Assembly (NCBI GenBank): GCA_963735375.1
Contig: CAVTKS010000006.1
Location: forward strand, 1,178,345-1,242,344
Reading direction: 5' to 3'
Length of the DNA stretch: 64,000 nt
Source of the DNA: an uncultured Acidimicrobiales bacterium
GTDB lineage: Bacteria > Actinomycetota > Acidimicrobiia > Acidimicrobiales > VFJN01
Shown here: positions 7,785 to 64,000 of the stretch, in pieces
Position numbering within the stretch: the stretch's first letter is position 1
How the letters are laid out: each line of letters begins with the position of its first letter
Program-made: the position numbers and the translations under genes
Notes under the pieces: model-generated
What the model saw: the letters and a program-made list of their open reading frames with translations, nothing else
Told to the model about the DNA's origin: nothing
The model's database searches: none

Positions 7785-7848
7785 CGGAGCGCAGCATGCC
7801 AGGTCGGCGCGCGGCGCGCACGAGTCGTCCCTGTCATCAGATCGGCTG

Positions 7849-7920: not shown

Positions 7921-7945
7921 ACGGCAGCACGAGCGAGGGGGCACC

Positions 7946-27926: not shown

Positions 27927-28464
27927 CCACCTCGCCCAGGCCATGTTGGGTTGCCGCTGGACCTGGGCGTCCTCAAAAATGCCGGTCCAGGGCGCTTGCG
28001 ATAGTGAGCAGCGCAACGGTGGAGCGCGACGCTTGACGCGCCAGATCTGCCGATCTCGCGCGCCCTAGTTCGGCGTCGGGGATCGGACGAGCAGCAGTAT
28101 CAACTGGCTAAGAATCATGTGCTCGGGGTTCCGGGCAATCGACGACGAGCAGATGGAGATCTGACCCGAGGGCATCGAGGGCCCCAACTTCACACGACAG
28201 GCGCAGTGCCGCGCCCATGTCTGCCGCTCGCGTTCGACGGCGTGCGCCGACCCGCGAGGCTCAGCGGTCACAACGCCGCGTCAGGGTTTGGTACCTGGGC
28301 CGATCTCATACACAGGGTATGAGGGACGCCCTCGACAACCGAAGTGCACCACGCAGATACAGCGGCAGCTGGCCCCTGAGTGACCTCGGGTATATGACGC
28401 AATGTTCGACATTCCCGGTGTTTTTCCTTGTAGGAGGGGGTGCCAGGGGCTAGTCTACGAACGC

Positions 28465-30228: not shown

Positions 30229-31574
30229 TCAGGTCGCGAGATCGGCGGGCTGGCCGGACTCGGACCCCTGCGCCAGCCAGTCGAGGGCGACCGCGGCGGT
30301 CCACGACTGGGCGGACGAGCCGAGCGGCTCGCCGGTCAGCGGTTGCGCGTACTCGCTGCACCCGCTCTCCCGCAGTTGGGCGATGGCGGCTCGACGCAGC
30401 GCATCGGCCCGGTCGTGGCACCCGTCGCGGTCGAGCGCCCACCACAGCAGCCACGTGATCACCGGCCACGTCGGGCCGCGCCAGTACGAGCAGGGATCGA
30501 ACGCCGGGTCGTCCACGGCCGTCGTCGGTGGGACGGCCCAGCGCAGGCCGTCGGCACCGGCGTATGAGGGCCCGGCGAGGCGGGTGGCCAGTGCGGCGCG
30601 GCGGTCGGCGTCGCAGCCGGCCACCAGCGGGGCGAACCCGGCGATGGTGTCGGCGGTGACCCACTGGTCGGCCACCAGGTCGCGGTCGAGACAGGCGCAG
30701 CGGGCAGGGTCCCAGCAGGCGTCGAGGCCGCGGCGACTCAGCTCGGCGTCGGCGCGGTGCCCGTCTGCCGCCCCGGCGTGCCCGGCGATGGTCGCCAGGT
30801 CGGCGAGCGTGTCGTCGGCCGCGGCGAGGATGGCGGTGAACAACACGTCCGCCATGCGGAACGGGTGACGTCGATGCGACGCGACGGGTCGTAACCCACG
30901 TCGACGAGCTCACGGACCAGCGTGTGGTAGCGGCGGTACTCGTCGTCGGACGGGCGCTCGGACGCGTCGCCGACGTGCACGAGGTCGGGGCGGACGCCGG
31001 CCGTCTGCTCATTGATGGCGACGGCGGCCAGGGCGTCGTCCCACCGTGGCGAGTTGTCGAGCCCGCTCTCCCACGGGTGGAACACCGTGACGAGCCCTGT
31101 GCCCTCGGGGTCGCGGGCGGTGTGGAGCCACCGGTGCCAGGCCGCCAGCCGGGGGTACAGGTCGACGATCGCCCGGTCGACGGTCGCCACCGTGTCGTCG
31201 TGGCGGCGGGCTGCGATCGAGCGGATGCGCGCCAAGGCGATGGCGTGCACCGGTGGCTGGCAGATGCCGCTCGTGGCCACCCGGGGTGGGCACAGACCCG
31301 CTGTCCCCCAGGTGGTGTGGCGGGGCTCGTAGGCGCCCAGCGCCACCGAGCTGTCGAACACGATCTGGGGGACCATGCCGGTGGACCACTGTCCGCGGAA
31401 CAGCGAGCGCAGCTCGGTCACGGCCCGGTCGGGTGCGAAGTGGGCCCACCCGATGGCGACAAAGGCGGCGTCCCAGCTCCACTGGTGCGGGTACAGCCGG
31501 GGAGACGGGCGGGTCCAGGTGCCCCGGTCGTTGGTCCGCAGGACGCCGATCGCCTCGGCCGCCAGCTCGTCCAC
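30229..31574 (-). pseudogene. GH63-type (MGH1-like glucosyl/mannosylglycerate hydrolase) glycoside hydrolase, split by an apparent -1 frameshift near 30863-30868
   Basis: The N-part (ORF 30738..31574) contains YPHQWSWDAAFVAIGW...VFHPWESGLDNSPRWD. The C-part (ORF 30229..30855) contains HPFRMADVLFTAIL...YWRGPTWPVITWLLWWAL...EYAQPLTGEPLGSSAQSWTAAV. One extra G in the GGG run at 30863-30865 would restore ...IDVTPFRMADV. Confidence 0.75.
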
Positions 31575-45869: not shown

Positions 45870-47930
45870 TCACGCCAGGCCGTCGGCCTCGGCGATGAAG
45901 TCGTCGAGCACCCCGTCGCCCACGCGCACCGGCCCCTGCGGTCTCGTCTCGCCGGGGATGGTCTCGATGGCCGATGCCCGGGCCACCAGATCGTCCGCCG
46001 TCGTCTGGGACGCGGTCGCCCCCGCCGTGTCGCCGGCCGCTGCGGCGGCGAGGCCGTCGAGTGTGGCGACGAGGGCTTGGCCCCAGAGCGCGGTGGCGTC
46101 GAGCCACGGGGCGCAGTCGGCTACGAAGCCCGCGTCCGTGACGTTGGTGCGGATGAGGGCGGGCGCGGCGGCGAGGCGCTCTGCGTACGGGCGGAGCGCG
46201 TCGACCGCGCCCTGGCGGTCGCCGCCCGACCACGCCGACCGGAACGAGTCGAGCTGGGTGGCCAGGGCGGGGGCCTGGGGCTGCGACACGATGCCCGAGC
46301 TGGCCGACGTGGGCGCCAGGTTCTCCAGGTCGAAGAAGGCGAGGAGCGCGTCGACCGTCTGCTCGTCGCCTCCCGCCAGGTGGGCGGCCGCCGCGCGGTG
46401 GGCGCGGGCGGGGTCGTAGGCGGCGTCGTTCCAGGTGAAGTCGGCGCCCCCGACGAGCTGCACCTTGCTCGCCGCCGCCTGGTTCATCGGGTTGAGCACG
46501 ATGCCGGTGGTCTGTTCCGACAGGCCGGGCTCGCGGCGGGCGTAGGGGGCCAGGATGAGCCGCCCCTCCGTCGGCGGGAAGTCGTTGACCGGGGTGTTGT
46601 CCCACACGAACAGCGGCCGCCCGAACGTCCCGGCCGCCGCCAGGGCCTGGGCGACGGTGATCTCGTCGGGCACGACGTACACGCCGGTCCACATCACCTC
46701 GACCTGCGGATCGAGCTGGTCGCGGAGCACGGTGCGGTACGGCCCATCGCTCGTCCCCTGGTACTCGGTGGGCACCATCTGCAGGGGCTCGGCGCCCTCG
46801 TGTGTGGCGATGAACCCGGTCTGCACGGCGTTGAGCAGCTGGGCCTGCGCGCGGGCCGCCGCCTCCGTCGACGGCGCGCCATAGGCCGCGGCATCGCCGT
46901 CGCAGTTCCAGCGCGTGTGGTCGATGTCGTCCAGGGCGATCGAGAACGAGCGCACACCGAGGGCGTGGACCGCCTCGAGCTTGGCCGTCAGGGCGGTGAG
47001 ATCGGCGGGGTCGCTGTAACAGATCGACACGCCGGGGGAGACGGCGAAGGTGAACCGCACGTGGTTGGCCGTCGCCGCGTCGACCAGGGTGCTCAGGGCC
47101 TCGACGCGGTCGGCGGGGTAGGGGTCGCGCCACTGGTCCCGGTGGTAGGGGTCGTCCTTGGGCGCGTAGATGTAGGTGTTGAGCTTGAAGAGGCCGTAGA
47201 AGGCGAGCTGATCGAGCCGCTCCTCGGTGGTCCACGGGCTGCCGTAGAACCCCTCGATCGTGCCGCGGTGCCGCATCGCCGGATGGTCGACGATGGCGAC
47301 GCCCGCGACGTTCCCGTCGGCCGTGAGCTGGCGCAAGGTCTGGGCGGCGTAGAACGTGCCGGCGGGGTCGGCGCCCGCCAGGACGACGTCGCCCGTGCCG
47401 TCGGACCGTCCGTAGGCGGCGAGCGCGTACCCCTCGGCCGGCAGCTCGGCGGGGACCGTGACACCGACCTCGCCGAGCTGGGCCACGACCTCGGGGTCGC
47501 CGGCCGAGCCGAGCCGGACGGTGAGCCCATCGGTCCGGTCGGTGTCGTGGTCGTCGGTGGAGACGGCGACTACCTCGGCGGCACCGGCGCCCTCGACCAC
47601 CTCGCTGACGACCGCGACGGCCGCAGGGTCGGTGTCCTCGTCGGTGACGATCGTGACCGACGGCGGCACCGGGACGTCGGGGCCCAGCCACCGGGCCTCG
47701 CGCGGGGTCGGGGTGACGACGGGCAGGGGCTCGGTGCGCTCGGACAGCTCGACGCTCGCGGACGTCGTCGTGGTGGAGCCGGCGTCGGACGGGTCGTCGC
47801 CCTGCGGCTCGGCGTCGTCGCCCCCCGAGCACGCCCCGGCGATCAGGACCGCGGCCACGATGGCGGCGGCGACCACCCGCCCGCTCGGGCGGCGACGGGC
47901 CGGGTGGGGTCGGGGGTAGGGCGAGGTCAT
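45870..47930 (-). CDS. GH84 beta-N-acetylglucosaminidase (O-GlcNAcase/NagJ-like) lipoprotein
   Basis: HRGTIEGFYGSPWTTEERLDQLAFYGLFKLNTYIYAPKDDPYHR and the catalytic pair in SIALDDIDH. Lipobox LIAGACSGG. ORF trimmed to ATG 47930. Confidence 0.85.
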   Translation of the reverse strand: MTSPYPRPHPARRRPSGRVVAAAIVAAVLIAGACSGGDDAEPQGDDPSDAGSTTTTSASVELSERTEPLPVVTPTPREARWLGPDVPVPPSVTIVTDEDTDPAAVAVVSEVVEGAGAAEVVAVSTDDHDTDRTDGLTVRLGSAGDPEVVAQLGEVGVTVPAELPAEGYALAAYGRSDGTGDVVLAGADPAGTFYAAQTLRQLTADGNVAGVAIVDHPAMRHRGTIEGFYGSPWTTEERLDQLAFYGLFKLNTYIYAPKDDPYHRDQWRDPYPADRVEALSTLVDAATANHVRFTFAVSPGVSICYSDPADLTALTAKLEAVHALGVRSFSIALDDIDHTRWNCDGDAAAYGAPSTEAAARAQAQLLNAVQTGFIATHEGAEPLQMVPTEYQGTSDGPYRTVLRDQLDPQVEVMWTGVYVVPDEITVAQALAAAGTFGRPLFVWDNTPVNDFPPTEGRLILAPYARREPGLSEQTTGIVLNPMNQAAASKVQLVGGADFTWNDAAYDPARAHRAAAAHLAGGDEQTVDALLAFFDLENLAPTSASSGIVSQPQAPALATQLDSFRSAWSGGDRQGAVDALRPYAERLAAAPALIRTNVTDAGFVADCAPWLDATALWGQALVATLDGLAAAAAGDTAGATASQTTADDLVARASAIETIPGETRPQGPVRVGDGVLDDFIAEADGLA

Positions 47931-48017
47931 GGGTTCCGGGTGGGGCAGGCCGAGGACATGGGTTCCGGGTTCGGAACCTATGGCCTCGGGCCCCGTCGGG
48001 TGGAACCCATGACCTCG
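47922..48017. repeat. Four copies of a 17-nt motif arranged as nested inverted repeats over the GH84 start codon
   Basis: Copies are CGAGGTCATGGGTTCCG (47922-38), CGAGGACATGGGTTCCG (47951-67), inverted CGGAACCTATGGCCTCG (47972-88) and inverted TGGAACCCATGACCTCG (48001-17). The inner pair matches at 15/17 positions and the outer pair at 16/17. Confidence 0.7.
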
Positions 48018-51975: not shown

Positions 51976-53157
51976 ATGCCGAGCTTCCGTGAGCTGCTCG
52001 CCGCCACGAAGTCCGAGATCCGCGAGGTCGACACGGCCACGGCCGACGAGCTGCGGCGCCGGCCCGGCGCCGTCGTCCTCGACGTGCGCGAGCCCGACGA
52101 GTACGAGCAGGGCGCCATCCCCGGTGCGGTGCACATCCCCCGGGGCACGCTCGAGGGCTCGGTCGAGAGCCGGCTCACCGACCACGACGCGCCCGTCATC
52201 ATCCACTGCGCCAGCGGCGTCCGCTCGGCCTTCGCCGCCAAGACGCTCACCGACCTGGGCTACACCGACGTCGTCTCGGTTGTCGGCGGCTTCAACAAGT
52301 GGAAGGACGAGGGCCGCGACTGGGCCACGCCCCGCAGCCTCACGGCCGAGCAGCGCAACCGCTACCAGCGCCACCTGCTCCTGCCCGAGGTCGACGTCGA
52401 GGGCCAGCTCAAGCTGCTCGACGCACGCGTCCTGCTGCTGGGCGCCGGCGGCCTCGGCTCGCCCGCGGCGCTGTATCTGGCCGCCGCCGGCGTGGGCACC
52501 ATCGGCATCGTCGACATGGACGTCGTCGACGACTCGAACCTGCAACGGCAGATCCTGCACAACGTCGACCGCATCGGCGACCGCAAGGTCGACTCTGCCA
52601 AGAAGACGCTGACGGCGCTCAACCCCGACGTCAACGTGGTCACCCACGACGTGCGCCTGGGGGCCGACAACGTGGTCGACATCCTGTCGGGCTACGACAT
52701 GGTGGTCGACGGCGCCGACAACTTCCCGGTGCGCTATCTGCTCAACGACGCCGCGCTCAAGGTCGGGATCCCCGTGGTGCACGGGTCGATCTTCCGGTTC
52801 GAGGGCCAGGTCACGGTCTTCAAGCCCCACGATGGGCCCTGCTACCGCTGCTTCCTGCCCGAGCCGCCGCCGCCCGAGCTGGCGCCCTCGTGTGCCGAGG
52901 CCGGCGTGCTGGGCGTGCTGCCCGGCATCGTGGGGTCGATCCAGGCGGTCGAGGCGATCAAGCTGATCCTGGGCATCGGCGACAGCCTGTCGGGCCGCCT
53001 GCTGGCCTACGACTCGCTCGAGCAGTCGTTCCGCACCTACAAGATGCTGCGCGACCCGCAGTGCCCGGCGTGCTCCATCGATCCCGACCAGATCGTCATC
53101 GCCGAGTACGACGAGCTCTGCGCCCCCCACCCGATCGCCCCGCCGGCCGCCGGCTGA
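51976..53157 (+). CDS. Rhodanese-ThiF/MoeB adenylyltransferase-sulfurtransferase (MoeZ-like, with the rhodanese domain N-terminal)
   Basis: N-terminal rhodanese with active-site loop HCASGVRS. This is followed by the ThiF nucleotide fold LLLGAGGLGSPAALYLAAAGVGTIGIVDMDVVDDSNLQRQILH and Zn cysteines CYRC...CPAC. Confidence 0.85.
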   Translation: MPSFRELLAATKSEIREVDTATADELRRRPGAVVLDVREPDEYEQGAIPGAVHIPRGTLEGSVESRLTDHDAPVIIHCASGVRSAFAAKTLTDLGYTDVVSVVGGFNKWKDEGRDWATPRSLTAEQRNRYQRHLLLPEVDVEGQLKLLDARVLLLGAGGLGSPAALYLAAAGVGTIGIVDMDVVDDSNLQRQILHNVDRIGDRKVDSAKKTLTALNPDVNVVTHDVRLGADNVVDILSGYDMVVDGADNFPVRYLLNDAALKVGIPVVHGSIFRFEGQVTVFKPHDGPCYRCFLPEPPPPELAPSCAEAGVLGVLPGIVGSIQAVEAIKLILGIGDSLSGRLLAYDSLEQSFRTYKMLRDPQCPACSIDPDQIVIAEYDELCAPHPIAPPAAG

Positions 53158-53257: not shown

Positions 53258-55069
53258 ATGGTGGGTGCTCGGAAGGCTGGCTCGGGCGTGCGGCTGCTGG
53301 CCATCGTCGGCGCGCTGGTGGTCGCGATCGGCTGCCTCGCCGTGACCCCCGGGGCCGATGCGACGGCCGGCGCCCGCACGGCCCAGGCCCCGCCGCCGGT
53401 CACGTACGACCCGCCCCCGGTCCCTCCCGCCGTCCCGCCCGGGCTCGACGACGGCTCCGACGCTGTCTCGTCCGATCGGACCACGGCCGCCGCCGCCCCC
53501 CAGCCGGCCACGCGGGCCTTCGGGCGCCAGCCGTACGCCGACACGGTGGCGGCGGCGGCGAGCGTCGCCTCGTCGTACCGGACGAGCGGGTGCGCCATCT
53601 CCGACGCGACGCTCGCTGGCGTGCTGCTGTCGATCACGTTCACCGAGGCCGGTCCGCTCGCCAGCACGTCGTCCGCGCCGTCGCCCATGACCCTCAGCCG
53701 GTGGGACACCCAACCGATCCTGTACGCCTTCGCCAACCCGTCGACGCCCTACCAACGGGCGTTCTGGCACCCGGGCGTGGGTCTCTGGCAGTTCGACCAC
53801 CCGTGGCAGAACACGGCGACCGAACGCATCGACACCCGGACCTCGGCCGCACTCGCCGCCGAGGTCGTCGCCAGTCGTTGGTGCGGCTCGAGCGCCACCA
53901 ACGACCTCGGGCGGTTCGTGTACGCCGTGCGACCGTGGCACGGCTGCGACGAGGGCGCGACCGACGGCGTTCGCTGTCTCGAGATCTACACCCATCACTT
54001 CCGGGCGAACGGGCCGAGCCTCGCCGACGACACGCTCGTGGGGTTCACGCTGCAGGATGGTGTGACCCGCCTGGGGGGTGCGGTCCCGACGTTCTGCCAG
54101 CTCACGGGCGAGACGACCGCGCGCCCGTGCCTGTTCGTCAACCCGGCGGCGGCCCAGGGCAACCGGGCGTGGGCCGCCACGACGGGCATGCCGACGCCGC
54201 TCGCCGCGCCGTTCTACGTGGTGCGCGTCGGCTCGCAGGAGTGGCGCTACTGGCTGCGGGTCGACACGGGCTACGACCGCGACATCGTCGCCAAGGCCAC
54301 GGTGGGCACCAACCCCCGCAGCACGTTGGTGTGGCAGTCCGGCGCCGGCCTGTGCGACGTGGGCACGGGCAAAGGCTCGGCCTGCCCGTGCGGCGGACGG
54401 TGCTTCTACCTGTCGAACGCGTTCGGGGGCGTCGCCGACGTGGTGTTCCGCGATCCGACGCCCGCAGACCAGATCTTCTACGGCGACTGGGACGCCGACG
54501 GCGACGACTCCCTGGGGTTCCGCCGTGGCAACCGGTACACCCTCAAGTTCGCGCTCGGTGCCACCGCCGCCGACCGCACGTTCGCGTTCGGCACGGCGTC
54601 GGATGTCGTGTTGATGGGCGACTGGGATGGCGACGGGGTCGACACGCCCGCCGTGCGGCGTGGCCACCTGTATTACGTGAAGAACTCGTTCAGCGGGGGT
54701 GCGGCCGACGTGACGTTCGCGTACGGGCGGCCGGACGACATCGTGCTGGTCGGCGACTGGAACGGCGACGGCCGCGACTCGCTGGCCGTACGCCGCGGCA
54801 GCACCTACTACCTCAGGAACGCCCTCGGTGGTGGTGCCGCCGACGTGACTGTGACCTACGGCAGAGCCGGCGACGTGGTGCTGGTCGGCGACTGGAACGC
54901 CGACGGCCGCGACTCGCTGGCCGTGCGCCGCGGCAGCACGTACTACCTGAAGAACTCGTTCAGTGGTGGTACGGCCGACGTGACGTTCGCCTACGGGCGC
55001 GCGAACGACATCACGTTCGTCGGGGACTGGAACGGCGATGGCCGTGACACGCTCGGCGTCCGGCGCTGA
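53258..55069 (+). CDS. Secreted protein: unknown N-terminal domain plus C-terminal 45-aa FG-GAP/VCBS-like repeats
   Basis: Signal peptide MVGARKAGSGVRLLAIVGALVVAIGCLAVTPGADA. The N-domain contains ITFTEAGP...FWHPGVGLWQFDHPW. The C-terminus has repeats of the form GDWNGDGRDSLAVRRGSTYYLKNSFSGGAADVTFAYGR. Confidence 0.7.
   Translation: MVGARKAGSGVRLLAIVGALVVAIGCLAVTPGADATAGARTAQAPPPVTYDPPPVPPAVPPGLDDGSDAVSSDRTTAAAAPQPATRAFGRQPYADTVAAAASVASSYRTSGCAISDATLAGVLLSITFTEAGPLASTSSAPSPMTLSRWDTQPILYAFANPSTPYQRAFWHPGVGLWQFDHPWQNTATERIDTRTSAALAAEVVASRWCGSSATNDLGRFVYAVRPWHGCDEGATDGVRCLEIYTHHFRANGPSLADDTLVGFTLQDGVTRLGGAVPTFCQLTGETTARPCLFVNPAAAQGNRAWAATTGMPTPLAAPFYVVRVGSQEWRYWLRVDTGYDRDIVAKATVGTNPRSTLVWQSGAGLCDVGTGKGSACPCGGRCFYLSNAFGGVADVVFRDPTPADQIFYGDWDADGDDSLGFRRGNRYTLKFALGATAADRTFAFGTASDVVLMGDWDGDGVDTPAVRRGHLYYVKNSFSGGAADVTFAYGRPDDIVLVGDWNGDGRDSLAVRRGSTYYLRNALGGGAADVTVTYGRAGDVVLVGDWNADGRDSLAVRRGSTYYLKNSFSGGTADVTFAYGRANDITFVGDWNGDGRDTLGVRR
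54482..55066 (+). repeat. In-gene tandem repeat, period 135 nt (45 aa), 4.3 units
   Basis: Unit starts (GDW codons) fall at 54482, 54617, 54752, 54887 and 55022. Units 3 and 4 are nearly identical at the DNA level. Confidence 0.8.
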
Positions 55070-55194: not shown

Positions 55195-56244
55195 TCACGC
55201 CCCGGGCTGCGACCCGAGAGCTGGCTGATCCGCTGCGGGACCCTCGCGCCTCCAGTCGTGACCGCTCCGCTGGCCGTTGATCACGGTCATCCGGCGGCGC
55301 GTAGCAGCGAACCCAGCCGACCCGAGCACGAGAGCTGTCAGCAGCATCACCCCTCGATCGACAGTTGCCGCTAGCAGGCCGGTGTCGAGGTCGGTACCCA
55401 GGCCGACGGCGGCGGCCGTGACGAACGCTTCCCGGACACCCAAGCCGCCCGGCGTGAACGCGATTGCGCCTGCTATGCCCGCCGCAGGTGCAATCACGAG
55501 GAAGTATGCGTAGCTGTGATCGACGTCGAGCAGGCCAAATGCGATCTGGAACCGCCACGCGACGAGCGCGTACTTGGCGACGTCGATCAGGAGGACCACG
55601 CCGGCCACAGCGTGCTGTCCACGGATCGACTCCCAACCGACGCGAAACTGAGTCCAGGCGCGGCCGGGTGCGCCCTGGAGCCGAGGTAGCTCCGGCAAGG
55701 TCAGAAGGAGCAGGGCGAGCGATCCAATTGCGAGTAGGACGACGGCCGCCACGAGGAACGGTGACACGCTCCCGCCTGTCGCGGTCAGCGCCGCCAGTCC
55801 GACCAGTGCCACCACCGCACTGCTGGCGAACGTGATGGCGAGGTTGGCGCCGTAGTTGCTGCCCGAACGCCCGTAGTCGAAGCCGTGGACGACCTTGAGA
55901 TAGCGAAAACGGTAGAGCGAACCTGCCTGCCCGGGCAGCAGGTTGCCGAACTGGGTCGCGAGGAACAGCGTCCAGGTCTCGCGCAACCCGATCGCCAGGC
56001 CCTGGGCGCGATAGAGAACCCAGAACTCGGCGGAGTTCAGGAAGTGGCCGACGACGACAAGCAGGCCGATGATGGCCAGCACCGATCGGGGACCGTCGAG
56101 CAGACCAGCGAGGTCATCACGACGCCGGTACACAACGAGTGCCACCATCGCCACGAACGCCAGGGTGATGGCCAGGCTCGCGACCCGCTTCACGCCACCA
56201 ATGCCAGCGATCGACGCCGTGTCCTCTGATGCGTCGCGGGGCAT
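55195..56244 (-). CDS. UPF0104 / lysyl-PG-synthase-TM-like (MprF flippase-domain-like) membrane protein
   Basis: 349 aa, polytopic, with the family motif FTPGGLGVREAFVTAA. Its start lies 4 nt after the AsnB-like stop. Confidence 0.75.
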   Translation of the reverse strand: MPRDASEDTASIAGIGGVKRVASLAITLAFVAMVALVVYRRRDDLAGLLDGPRSVLAIIGLLVVVGHFLNSAEFWVLYRAQGLAIGLRETWTLFLATQFGNLLPGQAGSLYRFRYLKVVHGFDYGRSGSNYGANLAITFASSAVVALVGLAALTATGGSVSPFLVAAVVLLAIGSLALLLLTLPELPRLQGAPGRAWTQFRVGWESIRGQHAVAGVVLLIDVAKYALVAWRFQIAFGLLDVDHSYAYFLVIAPAAGIAGAIAFTPGGLGVREAFVTAAAVGLGTDLDTGLLAATVDRGVMLLTALVLGSAGFAATRRRMTVINGQRSGHDWRREGPAADQPALGSQPGA

Positions 56245-56248
56245 GGAG

Positions 56249-58060
56249 TCAGTCGGTCGCGAGCGACGTGAACGCCGCGTACGAGCAGAGCAGCCCGATC
56301 AGCTGACAGGCGTGATGGCCCAACGACACGCGCTCGCGGTAGAGGTCCTCGGCGCGCTTGGGATGAAGCACTTCCTCGATGAACTCCCGATTGACTGCGA
56401 AGGGAAGCAGATCGAGCAGGCCGAACACACGCTCGCGAAGCGGGCCGGCGTACCAGTCGTCGATCGGCGAATCGACCGGTGACTGCTTCGGCAGGTCGAT
56501 GACCCAGTCGGGCAGCAGCCGATGCCGGCGTACGGTTTCGATGAGCAACGCCTTTCCGGGGTCGCCGGCACGCGTGCCGTTGGGCCGCAGGTACGCCGTC
56601 GGCAGAGCAGTGACGAACGAACGTAGGGCAGGGTGCAGGAATGGCGACAAGTGCACCAGCCCGGTCGCGGCGACTGCACCGTCAGCCTTCGTGCGACTCT
56701 GCCCGGTCATGCTCATGCCGTGGAAGGCAAGCCGTACACGGTCCAGTTCGCGTACGTCGTCGGCGAGACGCAGCCGTGTGTCCGCCGGCGCCTCGACCTG
56801 CACTGGTGGCGTGTCGTCCCGCAGCCGAGCGAGCGCCCGCTCATCGAGGTAGCACGTCGGCAGGTGGCCGCGTGCGGGTTTGGGCAGCAAGAGGCTTCGC
56901 AGCGTGCTCCGACCCATCCGGGCGACATGCCCCAGGTAGCGATCGGCGGCTGCCGTGCCGAGCGCGCCGAGTGCCGCTCGAGCTACAGGCTGCGGCGTCC
57001 GCGCGAGGCTCTCGATGATCCGGGCCCGGGTGTTCACCATCGGGTAGCCGAGGAACACGGCGTCGCACCCGTCGCCGGTGAACACGTGGGTGAACCCCTG
57101 CTCCCGTATCACCTGACTGGCCAACAAGGTGTGCACCTGATAGTGCGGCTGGGGGCCAGGTTGTGGGAACACGTCAGCGAACTTGCTGATCGCATCCATC
57201 ACGCTGTCAGGGGTGATCTTCACCCACGTGTGCGCGGCGCCGATCTGGCGGGAGATCTCCTCGGCGCCACGTTGTTCGTAGCGGGAGTCACCGAACCCGA
57301 ACGTGAAGGTGTGCACCTCGTGGCCAAGCCGGCGTAAGGCGGCCGCGACCAGGGCGGAGTCGAAGCCGCCGAGCAGCACGGCGTGGCGGTCGTCGGGGCG
57401 CGCCTGCTGCTCGACGGCGGCGCTGAACCGGCTGTAGAGCTCGTCGACAGCGCGATCGACCGTCGGAGGAACGTCGGCGGTGGGTGGGACTGGCGGCGGC
57501 GCGACCGCCTCGATGGACTCTTCGCCGAGGCGACGCCGTGTACCCGGGTCGAGCACGCTGATGTCCCCGAAGGGTGTACGCCTGTCGGGGAGGAACCCGA
57601 AGCCGAGGAGGAAGTCCTCGAAGCCACGGTCGACATGTAGATCACCACCGCGCGCTCGGGCGAGGACGCCCAGATGCGACGACACCATCGATCCGCCCTC
57701 AGGAAAGTCGGTGCGGAAGAGCCTGTGATTGCCCCTCCCACCTGCCACGACGACCCTTGCGTCATCTCCCGCCACCGCGACGAGGTCTTCATCGCAGCCA
57801 TCGAGCAGATCGGTAGCGCTACCAATGTCAGACAACGAGCCGGCGATCGCGTGGACGCCCGAACCGTAGGCTGCTGCACCGCAGCCGGGATCGAACCTGC
57901 GTGCGACCGTGGCGCCACCATCTGAGGCGCACGCCACCCACCCATCCCCGGAGGGTGATGACCACTCCTGAAGCGGTTCGGCTCCGATGTGAGCAACCGC
58001 ACGCCGACACAACTCCTTGCGCCGCTGACTGATCCCCAACCCGCCGATGATGATGTTCAC
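56249..58060 (-). CDS. Asparagine synthetase B-like ATP-dependent amidotransferase/ligase lacking the N-terminal catalytic Cys
   Basis: PP-loop variant AVLLGGFDSALVAAAL in an AsnB-type synthetase domain (FTHVFTGDGCDAVFLGYP). The N-terminus is MNIIIGGLG rather than MCG, so the glutaminase nucleophile is absent. Confidence 0.8.
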   Translation of the reverse strand: MNIIIGGLGISQRRKELCRRAVAHIGAEPLQEWSSPSGDGWVACASDGGATVARRFDPGCGAAAYGSGVHAIAGSLSDIGSATDLLDGCDEDLVAVAGDDARVVVAGGRGNHRLFRTDFPEGGSMVSSHLGVLARARGGDLHVDRGFEDFLLGFGFLPDRRTPFGDISVLDPGTRRRLGEESIEAVAPPPVPPTADVPPTVDRAVDELYSRFSAAVEQQARPDDRHAVLLGGFDSALVAAALRRLGHEVHTFTFGFGDSRYEQRGAEEISRQIGAAHTWVKITPDSVMDAISKFADVFPQPGPQPHYQVHTLLASQVIREQGFTHVFTGDGCDAVFLGYPMVNTRARIIESLARTPQPVARAALGALGTAAADRYLGHVARMGRSTLRSLLLPKPARGHLPTCYLDERALARLRDDTPPVQVEAPADTRLRLADDVRELDRVRLAFHGMSMTGQSRTKADGAVAATGLVHLSPFLHPALRSFVTALPTAYLRPNGTRAGDPGKALLIETVRRHRLLPDWVIDLPKQSPVDSPIDDWYAGPLRERVFGLLDLLPFAVNREFIEEVLHPKRAEDLYRERVSLGHHACQLIGLLCSYAAFTSLATD

Positions 58061-58134
58061 CGCGCGTCACGGTAGTACGGCGACCCACCCGCCCCCGAGC
58101 TCTTGCCACTGGGCAAAGGCCGTTCGAGCCGACG

Positions 58135-59358
58135 CTATGACACCATGAGGCGCCTGCTCTCGAGAAGCCCCACCGTCAGGTCTGACGACTGGCTCGAGAG
58201 CTCCTGCAGGCGGACACTCGCTTCCTCGAGCTGTGCGCGCACCTCGTCCGCATGCTGGACGAGCGCGTGGGCCCGCTCGGCGAGGCGTTCGGGCTCCAGG
58301 TCCGTGACCCACGTCGCCCAGGGCCCGATCCCGGCTGCTTCCGCGACGCCCATGGCCTTGTGCTCGTAGGGAATCACAAGAACGGGTGTGGCCGACGAGA
58401 TGGCGAACACGGCTGGGTGGTAGCGCCCCGCGATCACGAAATCGGCGGTTGCGATCAACGACCGTTGCGCCACGCTGTCGAGTGTGTCGGACGCAACCCG
58501 CGTGCGCGCGGCGGCGGCAACCTGGCCGGCCAGTTCCGCGAGATAGGGGGCATCACGGTGAGCCCGACCGTGGAGCTGAGGTAGGAATACCACGGACGTG
58601 GGTTGGCTCTCGCACATCCGATCGATGGCCGCGACCAGCGATCGATCGTGAGGCTCCCGCTGGTCCTGGCCGGGGTCCCGGGCGGCTACGACCAGCAGAC
58701 GTTCGTGTGCGTTTGCGTAGGTGCGACGATCCGCAGGTGCGACGAGGTCCTGCAGCGCAGCGTCGGTCGTCACGGTCGCCTCCATACCGGTGAGTCGGCT
58801 GAGAAGGTCCGCCGATCGCTGTTCCCGCAATGAGATCGAGTCGAACCACCTGAAGCCGCGCCGCCGTACCACGTTGAGCAACCGGTGCTCGAACGGACCG
58901 CACGACGGCGCGTACAACGCGAGCGGACGCTGAGCGCTGCGCGCCATCCAGACGTACAACCAGTGCACCATCTCGTGATCGGCATACAGGTCGCCGAAGT
59001 ACGGGCCACCAGGCGCCGAGACGACGAGATCGGCTACCCCGATCGCCCTGATGATCTCGCGGCCCTTCTTCCCGGCAACGCGAGGAAGCCTGCACCTGAC
59101 GGCATGGAGTGCCGCGAACGCGACCAGGCGTACGTACTCGACGACGGGCAGCCGCATGCTGAGGTAGGTCACGGGGTAGTCGAGCTCTACCTCACTGTCG
59201 GCGTCGGCGAACTGGTGGACGATGGTGAACGCGGGGGCTTTGACGCGGTCGCCGATGCCGCGGACCATGGCCCGCATGGCGGCCTCGTCGCCACGGTTGT
59301 CACCGTGTTGATTCACGACCACGACGTGGGTCGCGTCGTCGCGTGCCCTGGAACTCAT
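58135..59358 (-). CDS. Polysaccharide pyruvyl transferase family protein (CsaB/WcaK-like)
   Basis: HVVVVNQHGDNRGDEAAMRAMV at the N-terminus and IAGRYHPAVFAISSATPVLVIPYEHKAMG near the C-terminus. The start overlaps the upstream stop (ATGA). Confidence 0.8.
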   Translation of the reverse strand: MSSRARDDATHVVVVNQHGDNRGDEAAMRAMVRGIGDRVKAPAFTIVHQFADADSEVELDYPVTYLSMRLPVVEYVRLVAFAALHAVRCRLPRVAGKKGREIIRAIGVADLVVSAPGGPYFGDLYADHEMVHWLYVWMARSAQRPLALYAPSCGPFEHRLLNVVRRRGFRWFDSISLREQRSADLLSRLTGMEATVTTDAALQDLVAPADRRTYANAHERLLVVAARDPGQDQREPHDRSLVAAIDRMCESQPTSVVFLPQLHGRAHRDAPYLAELAGQVAAAARTRVASDTLDSVAQRSLIATADFVIAGRYHPAVFAISSATPVLVIPYEHKAMGVAEAAGIGPWATWVTDLEPERLAERAHALVQHADEVRAQLEEASVRLQELSSQSSDLTVGLLESRRLMVS

Positions 59359-60959
59359 CTTGATCCTGCCTCCACGAGGTCAACGGCATCGCACTGAGCC
59401 ACGGAGCGGGCACGGAGACCAGCCAAGGCGGCTGCTCCCGCCACCGCGACGGCGAGCGCGGTGGCGACGAGGGTTGCCATGGTCAGTGCCACGGGCAGGG
59501 AACTCCACGCCAACACGGCGCGTAGCTGTCCGCCGTAACCCCTACCGTCGTCTGCCCAGTACCCACCAGTGAGCATGGACCAACCCAAGAACACGTGCAG
59601 CCCCACCCCGCCTGCAGCGATAGCGCACGCGACGGGTACAGCATGCGCAGCGAACCTCTTTCCGAGGATTGCCGAGACACCAACGGTGACCAACGCGGCC
59701 AGTGGAACGAGCAATGCGTAGAGGTAGCGCCCCTGGAGCCCGGGAAACGTTCCGTCGCGGAGGTGCGCGGTCCAATTTGTCCGGAACATCAACCCGACCT
59801 GGCCAACGATGAGCAGCGCGAGCAAGCTCGTCGACATCCGGAACCGCCGTCCTCGTAGTATCGCCAGCACGCAGAGTGCGACAGCCGCAACGGTGAGCAG
59901 CGTGATCATCCACGGGGCGAGGGTGATACCGGTGCGCCTGGCCGGCTGGCCCCAGAAGCTGGAGGCCACCCGCGCCACCCAGACACGGCCGAAATCGACG
60001 ACCGACGCGTCGTACCCTGGTGACGGTGTGCGGGTAAAGCCGTTGGGCTGCGCATCCGCGAATCGCACGACGTTGGCGATGAGCCAACTGAACCCGATCG
60101 CTGCCCCAACCCCGACGACCGCGAGGTGGCGCAGACCGGTCGCCGAAGGCCGCCAGCCGTTCGACCGAACCACCGCGATCGCCACGACGAGCACAGCCCA
60201 CACGGCGGCTGTCGCCGCCGTCGTCTTCGATAGCGGGGCGCCCGCACACCCGACAGCGGTGACGACAGCCCACCGCATGCCCCCCCGGTTCAGGTAGGCG
60301 AGCGCACCGACGACCGCGACGCTCGCGAACAACATGGCGAGGCCGTCGTTGTTGACCACCGCACCGATGAACGTCGACATCGGTACCAGCAACGTGACGG
60401 ACGCGGCCACCGCGGTGAATCTCCGGGAGAGGCCGAGCGCCAGGGCGGCTTCGGCCGCGAGCAGCGGGAGGGACACGACGGTGAGCAACGTCAGGAGTCG
60501 GTAGAGGTAGACCTCCCGGTCCCAGCTCCAGGCATCCCCGGGAAGCAGGCTCGTCAGCGACGACGCCGCGGCCATGCCCGCGTAGAACAACGGCGGGTGC
60601 TGCGACATCTGGTTACCCCACGTGCGGGACTCCGGTCCCTCGCCCAACTCGTCGAAGCCCACGCGGTCGGGGCGCGGGACGGCGTCGCTCGTGTGCTGCG
60701 GCGGGCGCGGCATGCCGCCGGGCGACACCAGCCGTTCTGATGTCACCACGGCCGGCGACCACGGTGTGTGCTCGGTCGGGTCGGCGTACCCGGGGTGCGA
60801 CTGGTACCACTTGATCATGTCGACGTGCTGTGCCTCGTCCGGGCCCCGATACGTCGGCACGAGGAGGATGAAGCACAGCCCGAACAGCGCCTTGAGCGCG
60901 AGTACCCACCACACGACCGGGTGATAGCGAACCCACAACCGTCGCAATCGGCTAATCAT
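59355..60959 (-). CDS. GT-C-fold-like polytopic membrane glycosyltransferase candidate (DUF2142/PMT_2-like), paralog 1
   Basis: ORF trimmed to ATG 60959 (MISRLRRLWVRYHPVVWWVLALK). First-loop acidic motif YRGPDEAQHVDM, NQMSQHPPLFY, and more than 10 hydrophobic spans. Confidence 0.6.
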   Translation of the reverse strand: MISRLRRLWVRYHPVVWWVLALKALFGLCFILLVPTYRGPDEAQHVDMIKWYQSHPGYADPTEHTPWSPAVVTSERLVSPGGMPRPPQHTSDAVPRPDRVGFDELGEGPESRTWGNQMSQHPPLFYAGMAAASSLTSLLPGDAWSWDREVYLYRLLTLLTVVSLPLLAAEAALALGLSRRFTAVAASVTLLVPMSTFIGAVVNNDGLAMLFASVAVVGALAYLNRGGMRWAVVTAVGCAGAPLSKTTAATAAVWAVLVVAIAVVRSNGWRPSATGLRHLAVVGVGAAIGFSWLIANVVRFADAQPNGFTRTPSPGYDASVVDFGRVWVARVASSFWGQPARRTGITLAPWMITLLTVAAVALCVLAILRGRRFRMSTSLLALLIVGQVGLMFRTNWTAHLRDGTFPGLQGRYLYALLVPLAALVTVGVSAILGKRFAAHAVPVACAIAAGGVGLHVFLGWSMLTGGYWADDGRGYGGQLRAVLAWSSLPVALTMATLVATALAVAVAGAAALAGLRARSVAQCDAVDLVEAGSR

Positions 60960-61098
60960 TGGCTCCCTGTGACGATGCCCGGCTATTCGGACTCGGCAGC
61001 GACGGACTCGCACAGCGATCGGTCGGTGGACCGTGATGTCTAGGCGGCGCAAACGTGAGTCACAAGTCCTGTCCCCGGGTCCAGCGCCGGCACTGCCG

Positions 61099-63444
61099 AT
61101 GCACGACAGCGTACCGGCGACGTCGATTCCGGGAGGGGAGCTCTCCGGGCTAACGTCGACTGGACCACCGTGTGGCCGCGATGTCCGTCACCGATGCCTC
61201 CGACAGATCCAGCTGGCGACCTTGCTCCCACCCACCACTCCTGACAAGCCGCTGGCGTCCATCCGCCGAGCAGTGCGGTCTGTGCCGCCGGTTGTGTGGC
61301 TCGTCACCGGCCTGCATGTGGCGGTGATGGCGACCTACAGCCTGCTCTACCTGCCGTACACCAATCCCGACGAAGCGCAGCACCACGACATGGTGATGGC
61401 ATGGCGCGACGGCGACGGGCTTGCTGGTCCCGGGGAGCGGTGGATGGCCTCCGGCGTCGGGAACGGCGCGGTTCAATCGCTGACCGTGTTCTTCGACCCG
61501 CCCTTCACCGATGACGCGGTGGTCCCCCGGGGCGAGCGGCCGACGTTCGGCGAGCTGGGCGGCTTTGAGCGTTTCCCGGGCCATGACACGACCCGGCGCA
61601 TCTCGGTCGGCGACCCGTTTCCCAATCAGATGACCCAGCACCCACCGCTGTTCTACGCCCTGATGGCCGGTCTCCTGGTCGTCGTGCCTGGTGACAGCGG
61701 CTGGGCCTGGGACCAGGTGGTCGGGTTCCTTCGGCTCGCCAACGTGGCGATGCTGGCACCGCTCCCTCTGCTCGCGTGGGCCACGGCGCGCCCTCTGTCC
61801 CGTTCGCGTGCCGTTCCCGCCGTGGCGGCGGTCGTGCCACTCCTGATTCCCGGGATCTCCCGGCTCGGCGGGACGATCAACAACGACAATCTGCTCATCC
61901 TGCTCACCGGCATCGTCACGGCCCTCGCGGTGCGTGTGTGTCTCGGCAACCTGGGCGTGCGGTTCGCCGCGGTGGTGGGCGCGGTAACGGGCCTGGCGCT
62001 GTTGACCAAGGGATTCGCCCTCGTCCTCCCGCCCGTCCTCGTTCTTGCCTACCTGACGGGCTGGCGCCGGGGGCGCGGGAGGTTCCCGTGGCAGGCGATG
62101 CTGGCCGCACAAGGAGTGGCGTTCGCGGTCGGCGGGTGGTGGTGGGTACGCAACCTGGTTCGTCACGGGCTCGTCCAACCGGGCGGCTTCGGGGCGGACG
62201 CGCGGGCTCGCATGCGACCGCCAGTGGTTCTCGACTCCGTCGAACGCAACCCGCTCGAGTTCATCGATGGGTTCGTAGCGGAGATGTCACGGCGGATCGT
62301 CGCGTGGCTCGGACTCGTCGAACCACCGTTCTTCCCGTTCCCGCTCGCGCTGTTCATCATGGCGGTCATCGCCGTCGGCGTGGTCCTCGCCTTCGTTGCT
62401 CGGCGGTCTGTGACGCCACTGGGCGTGGCAGCGGTGGCGATCCTGCCGGCACCCCTCGCCCTGGGCATCGTGGCGCGTGGTTCCTACAACAGCTGGTGGA
62501 AGTACCAGCAGTTCAACGGCGTCCAAGGCCGCTACCTCTACCTGGGGATCGTGGGAGTCGCGGTGGTGGCCGCTGCCGGCTGGTCGGCCGCGGTCCGCGC
62601 AAGCGCGAGAACCTGGCTCCCGGTCGGGCTGCTCTTGCTCGCCGGCATCACGCAGGTCGTCGCAGCGACGATCGTTCTCGATACCTATTGGTCGCCCCCT
62701 GGGTCAGGTGGCCTGGGCATGTTCGAACTCAACGACTCGCTGGCGACAATCGCCCGGTGGTCGCCATGGCCGATCGGCCTGACCGCGATCCCGGTTTTGG
62801 CTGTGGTCGTCTTCGCCCCCGCCACCGTCGTCGCCGGTGTTCGTTTCGCTGCCGGCGGTGACGAACCCGATGATCCCCAGAAGGATGGATCGGCCACGGG
62901 GTCCGCGCCTGGCATACCGCCTCGACCCGAGGCCCACGCTGACGTGCCGACCCGGTCGGGGATGGCGTACGTGTGCTTCATCGTCGACGCGTTCACCCGC
63001 CGCATCGTCGGCTGGCGGGTCGCGGCGCACATGCGCACCGAGATGGTCCTCGACGCCCTCGAGATGGCCAGAACGGCCCGCGGCGGCCGCCGGCTGGTCG
63101 GGCTCGTCGCCCACTCCGACGCCGGGTCGCAGTTCACGTCGGTGCGGTTCACCGAACGGCTCGACGAGATCGGCGCCCGACCCTCGATCGGCACCGTCGC
63201 CGACAGCTACGACAACGCCCTGGCCGAGACCACCAACGGGCTCTACAAGACCGAGTGCGTCTACGGGCCCGACACCGACGGCTGGGACGACGTCGACGAG
63301 CTCGAGCTCGCCACCCTCTCGTGGGTGCACTGGTTCAACGAGCACCGGCTCCACAGCCACTGCGACGACGTGCCACCAGCAGAGTTCGAAGCAGCGTTCT
63401 ACGCTGCCCAACAGCCCGACCCCGCCGGGGTTGGAAACCAATAG
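61099..63444 (+). CDS. Chimeric ORF: GT-C-like paralog 2 (to about 62934) read through in frame into an IS3 transposase C-terminal fragment
   Basis: The paralog shares YTNPDEAQHHDM, NQMTQHPPLFY and GTINNDNLLIL with paralog 1. From about 62935 the sequence becomes ADVPTRSGMAYVCFIVDAFTRRIVGW...HSDAGSQF...NALAETTNGLYK (rve/DDE core). The start is uncertain (ATG 61099, or ORF-track 61033). Confidence 0.55.
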   Translation: MHDSVPATSIPGGELSGLTSTGPPCGRDVRHRCLRQIQLATLLPPTTPDKPLASIRRAVRSVPPVVWLVTGLHVAVMATYSLLYLPYTNPDEAQHHDMVMAWRDGDGLAGPGERWMASGVGNGAVQSLTVFFDPPFTDDAVVPRGERPTFGELGGFERFPGHDTTRRISVGDPFPNQMTQHPPLFYALMAGLLVVVPGDSGWAWDQVVGFLRLANVAMLAPLPLLAWATARPLSRSRAVPAVAAVVPLLIPGISRLGGTINNDNLLILLTGIVTALAVRVCLGNLGVRFAAVVGAVTGLALLTKGFALVLPPVLVLAYLTGWRRGRGRFPWQAMLAAQGVAFAVGGWWWVRNLVRHGLVQPGGFGADARARMRPPVVLDSVERNPLEFIDGFVAEMSRRIVAWLGLVEPPFFPFPLALFIMAVIAVGVVLAFVARRSVTPLGVAAVAILPAPLALGIVARGSYNSWWKYQQFNGVQGRYLYLGIVGVAVVAAAGWSAAVRASARTWLPVGLLLLAGITQVVAATIVLDTYWSPPGSGGLGMFELNDSLATIARWSPWPIGLTAIPVLAVVVFAPATVVAGVRFAAGGDEPDDPQKDGSATGSAPGIPPRPEAHADVPTRSGMAYVCFIVDAFTRRIVGWRVAAHMRTEMVLDALEMARTARGGRRLVGLVAHSDAGSQFTSVRFTERLDEIGARPSIGTVADSYDNALAETTNGLYKTECVYGPDTDGWDDVDELELATLSWVHWFNEHRLHSHCDDVPPAEFEAAFYAAQQPDPAGVGNQ

Positions 63445-63603: not shown

Positions 63604-64000
63604 TCAGAGGTGCAGGCCGCACTCGGTCTTGTCGATCCCGTCCCAGCGGCCGGCGCGTGGGTCCTCACCAGGGACGACCGGTCGCGTGCACGGCATGCAC
63701 CCGATCGACAGGTAACCACGCTTGATCAATGGGTTGATGGGGACGTCGTGCTGGTCGATGTACCGGCTCACGTCGTCGTTGGTCCAGGCTGCAATGGGGT
63801 TCACCTTGACCAGACCTCGCCCATCCCGCCCGACGATGGGGGCAGAGCGACGGAACGGTGTGTCGACCCGTCGCAGCCCACTCATCCATGCCTGCTTTCC
63901 CGACAGAGCCCGTTCGAGCTCGCTCACCCGGAGCGCCGCACAACAGCCCTCGGGGTCTGTTCGCCACGGCTCCTCGTCCTGTGGCACGGGGGTCATGATC
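63604..64000 (-). CDS. cysH: Phosphoadenosine/adenosine phosphosulfate reductase, C-terminal part (5' end outside window)
   Basis: AWMSGLRRVDTPFRRSAPIV...VKVNPIAAWTNDDVSRYIDQHDVPINPLIKRGYLSIGCMPCTRPV...RAGRW...KTECGLHL. The ORF is open to the window edge. Confidence 0.85.
   Translation of the reverse strand, partial: IMTPVPQDEEPWRTDPEGCCAALRVSELERALSGKQAWMSGLRRVDTPFRRSAPIVGRDGRGLVKVNPIAAWTNDDVSRYIDQHDVPINPLIKRGYLSIGCMPCTRPVVPGEDPRAGRWDGIDKTECGLHL

Follow-up and report, generated by a model that had tools for sequence, protein, structure and literature searches.

The 64,000-nucleotide (64-kb) stretch analyzed here, referred to as the window, derives from an uncultured Acidimicrobiales bacterium (contig CAVTKS010000006.1) and carries a five-gene envelope-glycan island near its right end. 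Four of the genes form a leftward operon that encodes, in this order, a polytopic glycosyltransferase of the GT-C class (GT-C1), a polysaccharide pyruvyl transferase (PvT), a Cys-less AsnB-like protein, and a PF03706 membrane protein; a paralogue of the first, GT-C2, is transcribed divergently (Table 1). The locus is an incomplete, reduced copy of a larger conserved cassette. In the reading that we favor, with a probability of roughly 45%, it is a reduced copy of a conserved module for the tailoring and export of a lipid-linked sugar by a route resembling the Arn pathway.

In the proposed mechanism, the PvT would place a pyruvate ketal from phosphoenolpyruvate onto a membrane-anchored sugar at the cytoplasmic face of the membrane. 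The AsnB-like enzyme would adenylate a carboxylate, most likely that of the new pyruvyl group, and convert it to an amide by using ammonia or another amine rather than glutamine. The lipid-linked sugar, neutralized in this way, would be flipped to the outer face by the PF03706 protein. GT-C enzymes resembling ArnT and the protein mannosyltransferases (PMTs), with a catalytic Asp-Glu pair in the first outer loop, would transfer the sugar from a polyprenyl-phosphate carrier to an envelope acceptor, probably a wall polysaccharide. The pathway of the window could work only if steps assigned to a family 4 glycosyltransferase (GT4), a methyltransferase, and a family 2 glycosyltransferase (GT2) were supplied from elsewhere in the genome.

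Families and gene coupling of the island proteins

An earlier note on this DNA, made from the letters alone, had proposed five protein families for the island, and the Pfam scores exceed the curated cut-offs for all of them. No window protein reaches the equivalog level for AsnB, CsaB, WcaK, or MprF. The PF03706 protein scores 70.4 bits against a cut-off of 33.4 over profile positions 7–302 of 302, and comparison with 39 aligned cassette homologues shows that it retains all 25 residues that are invariant in the family. It is not a bifunctional MprF, as the C-terminal domain for aminoacyl-phosphatidylglycerol synthesis is missing (NF033480, 11 bits against a cut-off of 600). The PvT matches PF04230 over the entire profile (78.3 bits against 25.3; positions 1–280 of 280) and falls below the equivalog cut-offs for CsaB (94.1 against 213.1) and WcaK (67.9 against 399). 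All 42 residues that are invariant among 33 cassette homologues are preserved in it, as are all residues conserved at 90% or more. Sequence searches of the PDB with the PvT and the PF03706 protein returned no match.

The genes are tightly coupled. The junctions described in the earlier note were recovered exactly: a 4-nt ATGA overlap between the GT-C1 and PvT genes, a 74-nt gap between the PvT and AsnB-like genes, and a 4-nt gap before the PF03706 gene.

The AsnB-like subfamily

The AsnB-like protein matches the synthetase domain PF00733 with 120.1 bits (cut-off 21), and its score against TIGR01536 (82.6 bits) lies below the cut-off of 267.1. It had been described as Cys-less, which is borne out: the N-terminus reads MNIIIGG, no Pfam match to a glutaminase (GATase) domain was obtained, and Cys occurs at position 2, which is not conserved, in none of 27 aligned family members. 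With neither Cys2 nor a glutaminase domain, the protein is distinct from glutamine-hydrolyzing asparagine synthetase B. Homologues are conserved across all ~600 residues at 43–75% identity. Because this conservation begins at residue 1, the 603-codon reading from the GTG at 58060 is correct, and the public annotation of the gene (P0001, 479 aa) starts 124 codons late.

The AlphaFold2 (AF2) model of the protein (predicted local distance difference test, pLDDT, 92) was compared with known structures by Foldseek. Matches spanning both domains of the fold were obtained with asparagine synthetase from human and E. coli (ASNS and AsnB), TsnB9, carbapenam synthetase (CarA), and beta-lactam synthetase (beta-LS), at E values of 6e-16 to 1e-11 over 575–672 columns. 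The fold and the synthetase-domain match place the protein in the AsnB-type adenylating superfamily (PF00733). Within the active-site region, the family-invariant PP-loop variant HAVLLGGFDS lacks the first Ser of SGGxDS and keeps the Asp-Ser pair. GDGCDA aligns to GEGSDE of asparagine synthetase and PKQSP to the PKEA lysine region, and both motifs are invariant in the family.

When 1.84 billion cluster representatives were searched with a profile of the family, 8,081 matched at E<=1e-10 and only 168 at E<=1e-30, and no protein long enough to be a fusion was found among the best 150 matches listed. By these sequence criteria, the enzyme belongs to a small, discrete, and sharply delimited subfamily. 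Carbapenam synthetase and beta-lactam synthetase are known Cys-less AsnB members that use a non-glutamine amine. A role of the lasso-peptide or beta-lactam type was considered for the window enzyme and rejected, since its context is entirely glycan- and lipid-related and it is linked to a PF03706 gene in 40/40 loci.

The GT-C enzymes

GT-C1 matches PF02366 with 29.1 bits (cut-off 22.7) and GT-C2 matches PF13231 with 29.0 bits (cut-off 26.1); homologues of GT-C1 carry PF09913, PF02366, and PF13231. The open frame of GT-C1 extends to 61052, and its start is most likely the ATG at 60959, which is favored by the source annotation (534 aa) and by a GGGAG motif 5 nt upstream. Across 34 homologues, P-D41-E42, H45, H121-P-P, N204-D205, K245, and Q409-G-R-Y are invariant. 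The AF2 model of GT-C1 (pLDDT 93) matched ArnT, AglB, Pmt4, AftA, and Emb in Foldseek with a probability of 1.00 at TM-scores of just 0.35–0.48, and Pmt1-2 are also among its best structural matches. GT-C1 thus has the GT-C fold. GT-C2 is 30% identical to it end to end (residues 74–604 align to 2–516) and retains the PDE, QHPPLFY, NND, K, and QGRYLY motifs; its possible starts are 61033/61036, 61100, and ~61222. GT-C2-like genes occupy the same chromosomal site in three related loci (L052, L053, and L013).

The acidic P-D-E motif just past the first transmembrane helix is shared by GT-C1, GT-C2, and the MEM572 family of large membrane proteins described below, and the loop that carries it would lie on the outer side of the membrane. 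ArnT and the PMTs, the nearest Pfam and structural relatives of the GT-C enzymes, use polyprenyl-phosphate monosaccharide donors. By analogy, the GT-C enzymes of the island may use a polyprenyl-phosphate sugar as well.

A conserved cassette in related genomes

Gene neighborhoods were labeled with reference proteins from six loci, which were compared by phmmer with the open reading frames (ORFs) of all fetched loci; linkage was counted in 24 distinct loci, each with 5 kb or more of sequence on either side of the AsnB-like gene. A PF03706 gene, a pyruvyl transferase gene, and a GT4 gene, the last often fused to a methyltransferase, are each present in 24/24 loci. A methyltransferase, free or fused, is found in 23/24, a GT-C-like membrane protein in 22/24, and an ArnC/GtrB-like GT2 in 17/24. 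The PF03706 gene directly follows the AsnB-like gene in all 40 loci that have enough downstream sequence. This invariable order suggests that the amidated product is what is flipped. The AsnB-like enzyme would act in the cytoplasm because it appears to be soluble and to use ATP.

Full-length alignments (E ~7e-16) relate the cassette GT2 to ArnC, GtrB, and Dol-P-Man synthase (DPMS), and it is predicted to be a polyprenyl-phosphate sugar synthase. Together, the ArnT/PMT-type GT-C enzymes and the ArnC-like GT2 point, by analogy, to a polyprenyl-phosphate carrier and to extracytoplasmic transfer. Comparable associations have been reported in archaea, where an AglD-type GT2 neighbors a PF03706 gene and a PMT/STT3-like protein (PMC5898192), and in streptococcal rhamnan loci with GT2 + DUF2142 pairs (PMC9746298). 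A second large membrane protein type, MEM572/565, has no Pfam match and carries an invariant P-D-E after its first helix. hhalign relates it to the GT-C profile with a probability of 91.6%, and a search of the PDB by sequence with the MEM572 profile gave no match. The cassette GT4 matched just a sucrose-phosphate-synthase-like chain, which is uninformative on the acceptor.

Carriers of the AsnB-like gene are nearly all metagenome-assembled genomes (MAGs) of Acidimicrobiia (Microthrixaceae, Ilumatobacteraceae, and Acidimicrobiales); a few belong to Gemmatimonadota, Acidobacteriota, and Verrucomicrobiales, and cultured strains account for none of 40 genome hits. In freshwater Ilumatobacteraceae-type genomes, five or six genes form a compact unit amid unrelated metabolic genes. 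In other lineages, the cassette adjoins dTDP-rhamnose genes, an LCP ligase, a UDP-sugar dehydrogenase, or a Wzm/Wzt exporter.

Complete cassettes are also present in MAGs of Gemmatimonadota (L006/L016), Acidobacteriota (L031/L035), and Verrucomicrobiales (L044), with AsnB-like proteins 41–51% identical to that of the window, which suggests cross-phylum transfer or MAG binning errors. Several "Bifidobacterium sp." labels among the carriers look doubtful.

The gene content of the cassettes bears on the substrate of the AsnB-like enzyme. The pyruvyl carboxylate would be the most economical one, because the PvT is the sole carboxylate-introducing enzyme in compact cassettes. Alternatively, the enzyme could amidate a uronic acid, or join an amino acid or amine to another glycan carboxylate. 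A gene for a UDP-glucose/ManNAc dehydrogenase lies nearby, within ~4–9 kb, in just four loci (L003, L005, L011, and L043), and an XrtA/PEP-CTERM exopolysaccharide amidotransferase (77 bits) is among the best NCBIfam partial matches of the AsnB-like protein. Uronamides are documented in O antigens (PMC2615507), and AsnB-type enzymes are thought to be responsible for them. Most cassettes, however, lack a nearby dehydrogenase, as does the entire window, whereas linkage to the PvT is universal. We regard a carboxylate other than the pyruvyl group as an unlikely target.

Proposed products: lipid-linked sugar or glycolipid

The earlier note had proposed a logic of cytoplasmic tailoring, flipping, and extracytoplasmic transfer. 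The comparative data are compatible with it, and a GT2 is usual in relatives, but a glycolipid product is a real rival. Several points weigh against the Arn-like reading. Enzyme activity, product, and carrier lipid of the cassette members are all predictions, as are substrate, order of steps, acceptor, and flipping. Neither a GT2 nor a GT4 is encoded in the window, the GT2 is absent from 7/24 cassettes, including those of the closest relatives of the window, and an Arn-like scheme offers no obvious function for the universal GT4. The PP-loop of the AsnB-like enzyme deviates from SGGxDS as described above, and no amidated pyruvate ketal turned up in the literature searched. Finally, all experimentally studied PF03706 proteins, namely MprF, GpgF, and HexF, are tied to glycerolipids (PMC12713373, PMC10128005).

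This last point leads to the rival model, in which the cassette would produce a modified glycolipid of the membrane, much as GpgSDF and HexSDF do. The GT4 would glycosylate a glycerolipid (diacylglycerol, phosphatidylglycerol [PG], or phosphatidylinositol), the methyltransferase, PvT, and AsnB-like enzyme would edit the head group, and the PF03706 protein would flip the lipid; the GT-C enzymes, with the GT2 where present, would just add outer sugars or build a lipoglycan. The linkage counts fit this model, as the GT4 and the PF03706 protein are universal and the GT2 is not. The characterized partners of PF03706 proteins are all glycerolipid systems: MprF with lysyl-PG, GpgSDF, which combines a GT4, a deacetylase, and a UPF0104 protein to make glucosaminyl-PG (GlcN-PG) (PMC12713373), and HexSDF (PMC10128005). 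In addition, GT-B–PF03706 fusions have been reported in Actinobacteria (preprint 10.1101/2022.03.11.483950), mycobacterial glycolipids hold pyruvylated, O-methylated glucose (PMC6801904), and some compact cassettes are apparently self-contained, since they lie amid unrelated metabolic genes. On the other hand, lipid translocation has been demonstrated for MprF only, and the flippase activity of GpgF and HexF is itself unproven (PMC12713373, PMC10128005). GT-C-like enzymes, whose nearest relatives use polyprenyl-phosphate sugar donors, accompany 22/24 cassettes, and the window lacks the GT4 that the model requires. A glycolipid product is possible but doubtful in our estimate.

A more specific proposal is that the strictly linked PvT and Cys-less AsnB-like enzyme together make an amidated pyruvate ketal on a lipid-linked sugar, which a dedicated PF03706 flippase, encoded in the same mobile cassette, would export. 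The amidated ketal would be a neutral 1-carbamoyl-ethylidene group or a conjugate with an amine or amino acid. This joint proposal, including the nature of the group, is speculative and more probably wrong than right.

The window copy of the cassette

GT4, methyltransferase, and GT2 genes are all absent from the entire 64 kb. The earlier note had remarked on the lack of priming GT2/GT4 and sugar-nucleotide genes, and the whole window indeed yielded no match. Its deduction that the substrate must come from elsewhere is less secure: the absence of the genes is real, but it may instead mean a broken pathway, a larger cassette having been cut down.

The closest relatives of the window, with AsnB-like proteins 70–76% identical, illustrate what is missing. 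In L050, the order is GT-C, PvT, an opposite-strand methyltransferase, AsnB-like, PF03706, and an opposite-strand GT4; L051 matches this order as far as its contig extends, and L001 has the same genes, with the methyltransferase sited after the AsnB-like gene. A Methyltransf_23 gene lies between the PvT and AsnB-like genes of L050 and L051, where the window has its 74-nt gap, and the position taken by the GT4 in L050 and L001 corresponds in the window to the end of an unrelated gene. Gpg/Hex modules are characterized by a lipid glycosyltransferase (GT4/GT28) and three-component systems by a GT2, and relatives possess both a GT4 and a GT2; L013, for example, has a fuller arrangement with both GT-C types, a GT2, and a GT4-methyltransferase. 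The L001 cassette sits immediately downstream of moeZ, in forward orientation, and rmlACBD comes after it, whereas the window cassette is inverted relative to it and is followed by GT-C2 and an IS3 fragment. A simple inversion of the L001 arrangement was considered and rejected, as it would put the GT4 beside GT-C1, contrary to the sequence.

L001 is the nearest relative with good flanks. At its positions 7826–8655, truncation has left the GT-C1 orthologue as 233 aa and a separate 43-aa ORF, and the rest of the cassette, including the GT4 and methyltransferase, is intact. The parts that have been lost thus differ between cassette copies.

The right edge of the island had been taken for an IS3 remnant, and residues 638–786 of the GT-C2 frame match positions 226–369 of 369 of an IS3 transposase profile (~nt 62944–63444; NF033516, 155 bits, with additional matches to rve, rve_3, and rve_2; GC content at third codon positions [GC3], 0.92). 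Since this match lies within the GT-C2 frame, the original stop codon of GT-C2 is gone and its reading frame continues into the transposase sequence. A repeat scan detected neither a second IS3 copy nor a flanking repeat in the window. With only this part of the profile present and no partner repeat, the element is a remnant; the full OrfA/OrfB and terminal inverted repeats of a complete IS3 element are missing.

These features raise the possibility that the window copy is a nonfunctional or decaying remnant from which an IS3-associated rearrangement removed the initiating glycosyltransferase, an explanation that overlaps with either the Arn-like or the glycolipid model. Of 25 comparable loci, the window alone has neither GT4 nor methyltransferase, and no other comparable locus lacks the GT4. 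In its closest relatives, a methyltransferase occupies the site of the 74-nt gap and a GT4 immediately follows the PF03706 gene. The window operon is inverted with respect to L001, and the stop codon of GT-C2 has been lost to the IS3 fragment. Against decay, all four operon genes and the GT-C2 body are intact, every family-invariant residue is retained, and the ATGA overlap and 4-nt spacing persist, so that the genes do not look decayed; moreover, the missing genes could sit beyond the window. We consider a nonfunctional remnant rather unlikely.

Base composition and plasticity of the site

The island has a GC content of 67.8%, compared with 72.0% for nucleotides 1–55000 and a window median of 71.8%, and none of 226 sliding windows of 7.7 kb has a lower value. 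GC3 of the five island genes ranges from 0.79 to 0.82, compared with 0.93 +/- 0.035 for 19 other genes. The contrast had previously been estimated by hand from 60-nt lines. The lower GC content of the island is real and the hand counts were accurate, but the 82% counted at 33.0 kb comes from one spiky line, the neighbors of which have 57–70% GC; the true contrast amounts to ~4 GC points and 12 GC3 points.

A low GC3 of the cassette is shared by L001 (0.76–0.85, compared with 0.92–0.95 in its left flank) and is not seen in L005, L008, and L009. Because the nearest relative has a cassette of the same low GC3, the composition does not establish a recent acquisition by this genome.

The left anchor of the site, moeZ, encodes a protein whose homologues at 88–95% identity are labeled Acidimicrobiales or Acidimicrobiia wherever a label exists. 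The upstream order of PepA, ABC transporter, GH84, SIR2, and moeZ is kept in L052 and L053, with MoeZ 92–93% identical, and the upstream synteny is also found in L001. Downstream of moeZ, L052 (11246–21179) and L053 (11263–19870) carry differing envelope genes: an amidase/FG-GAP protein, methyltransferases, another PF03706 gene, a GT-C2-like gene, and Wzm/Wzt in one, and an RmlD-like gene, a PMT_2 gene, and a GT2 in the other. The suggestion of a plastic accessory segment is thus sustained by relatives that carry different glycan genes at the same site. The segment is a surface-glycan locus of variable content that has undergone exchange and rearrangement in the past. Like a genomic island, it combines deviant composition, a mobility gene at its border, and differing content in close relatives. 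Scans for tRNA genes and repeats found neither a tRNA target nor flanking direct repeats at the island, and an Rfam scan likewise found no bounding or regulating element. Its arrival in this genome is not demonstrably recent, as L001 has the low-GC3 cassette at the same site.

Layout and neighboring features

The genes that flank the island on both sides are unrelated to it (Table 1). Simple scans found no consensus promoter in the divergent control region (60960–61251), and promoter and terminator scans returned matches at the level of shuffled sequence.

Table 1. Features of the island and its flanks (positions in the window).
Feature	Position	Strand	Remarks
moeZ/moeB (ThiF + rhodanese), left anchor	51976..53157	(+)	Pfam matches; conserved edge of the variable site
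Secreted repeat protein, between moeZ and island	53258..55069	(+)	603 aa; native codon usage
PF03706 (UPF0104/MprF flippase-domain/"PplT") membrane protein, stand-alone	55195..56244	(-)	349 aa; final operon gene
Cys-less AsnB-like, predicted ATP-dependent adenylating, amide-forming enzyme	56249..58060	(-)	603 aa; GTG start
Gap between PvT and AsnB-like genes	58061..58134	.	74 nt
Polysaccharide pyruvyl transferase (PvT)	58135..59358	(-)	407 aa
GT-C1, DUF2142/PMT-type polytopic glycosyltransferase	59355..60959	(-)	534 aa; first operon gene
Divergent control region and uncertain 5' end of GT-C2	60960..61251	.	Read from the sequence
GT-C2, divergent paralogue, body	61252..62943	(+)	Aligns end to end with GT-C1
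IS3-family transposase remnant, C-terminal third of OrfB	62944..63444	(+)	In-frame fusion to GT-C2
Phosphoadenosine phosphosulfate (PAPS) reductase (cysH-like), right flank	63604..64000	(-)	PF01507, E 1.4e-27; cut by the window end

The protein encoded between moeZ and the island belongs to no Pfam family and contains tandem repeats of 45 aa (135 nt), whose GDWNGDGRDS motif is of the FG-GAP-like, calcium-binding type. It was considered as a cassette member and rejected on account of its native GC3 (0.92), its nature as a secreted repeat protein, and the lack of a homologue in related loci.

Further features were observed elsewhere in the window. At 30229–31574 (-), an MGH1-like glycoside hydrolase (PF22422) is spread over two ORFs that overlap and match profile positions 1–163 and 170–356; it is a frameshifted pseudogene or reflects a sequencing error. 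A near-perfect hairpin at 47922–48017, whose 46-nt arms show 76% complementarity and are separated by 4 nt, is located at the 5' end of the GH84 beta-N-acetylglucosaminidase gene. Positions 28402–29742 (+) encode a DUF222-family protein; this family is HNH-endonuclease-associated and often multi-copy or mobile in actinobacteria.

Significance of the cassette

The statement of the earlier note that the gene set matches no characterized pathway agrees with full-text literature searches, which retrieved no published characterization or description of the gene set, of an amide-linked pyruvate ketal, or of AsnB-like glycan amidation for this cassette. As predictions from sequence, its chemistry and the pairing of enzyme and flippase appear new and testable. 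The cassette is a portable, well-defined group of five or six genes from which a specific new surface modification is predicted. It also provides the stand-alone PF03706 "flippase" with a concrete partner enzyme, and its AsnB-like proteins form a discrete subfamily for which amide formation from a source other than glutamine is predicted. If the amidated ketal exists, it would represent a glycan or lipid modification for which we found no description, and the AsnB fold would gain a new enzymatic function; both would be carried by a mobile cassette spread through Acidimicrobiia and sporadically to Gemmatimonadota, Acidobacteriota, and Verrucomicrobiota.

Microbial communities of soil, freshwater, marine, and wastewater habitats contain abundant Acidimicrobiia, and no study of their envelope chemistry was found in the literature searched. 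In this lineage, the site downstream of moeZ behaves like a variable locus of the O-antigen type. The carriers are uncultured, and as the window copy is incomplete, a complete relative, such as the five-gene L009 type or the six-gene L008 type, would be the better subject of study.

Comparison with known systems

The AsnB-like enzyme shares with beta-lactam and carbapenam synthetases the two-domain AsnB fold and an N-terminal domain without the catalytic Cys, and a corresponding reaction would be expected, in which ATP-dependent acyl-adenylation is followed by attack of an amine not derived from glutamine. It differs from them in sequence (~14% identity), in its LGGFDS PP-loop, and in a context of glycan and lipid genes rather than antibiotic synthesis.

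CsaB-type PF04230 enzymes pyruvylate lipid-linked secondary cell wall polymer precursors in the cytoplasm, and the PF04230 enzyme of the window is likewise expected to act on a lipid-linked sugar in that compartment. Unlike in CsaB systems, it scores under the CsaB cut-off and is paired with an amide synthetase, and no TagA-type or SLH-protein genes were found among the window genes scanned against Pfam.

The operons GpgSDF of P. aeruginosa (GlcN-PG) and HexSDF of C. difficile (an aminohexosyl glycolipid) combine a lipid glycosyltransferase, a head-group editor, and a stand-alone PF03706 protein, and as in the cassette, the gene for the "MprF-like flippase" follows that of the editing enzyme. 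Their editor is a deacetylase that gives a cationic sugar, whereas pyruvylation and amidation are predicted for the cassette, which also adds GT-C enzymes and often a GT2; the window in turn lacks the GT4 synthase.

In the three-component systems (GtrABC; CsbB/GtcA/YfhO; the streptococcal Rgp GT2 + DUF2142; the archaeal AglD-PF03706-PMT/STT3-like set), a GT2 synthase, a flippase, and a GT-C enzyme decorate an outer polymer, a division of labor that the cassette resembles. The cassette has extra cytoplasmic tailoring (PvT, AsnB-like enzyme, methyltransferase, and GT4) and a PF03706 flippase candidate instead of a GtrA-type one, and the GT2 is absent from the window.

The Arn pathway, which modifies lipid A (ArnC, ArnD, ArnE/F, and ArnT), differs in its editor, a deformylase as opposed to the pyruvyl transferase and AsnB-like amide synthetase of the cassette, and in its SMR-type ArnE/F flippase in place of a PF03706 protein; the GT2 that it shares with the cassettes of relatives is missing from the window. 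In its overall logic, it is nonetheless similar, as a polyprenyl-phosphate sugar is edited in the cytoplasm, flipped, and transferred by an ArnT-type GT-C enzyme, and the resemblance extends to the individual proteins, with the GT2 of the relatives' cassettes matching ArnC and GT-C1 matching the ArnT fold.

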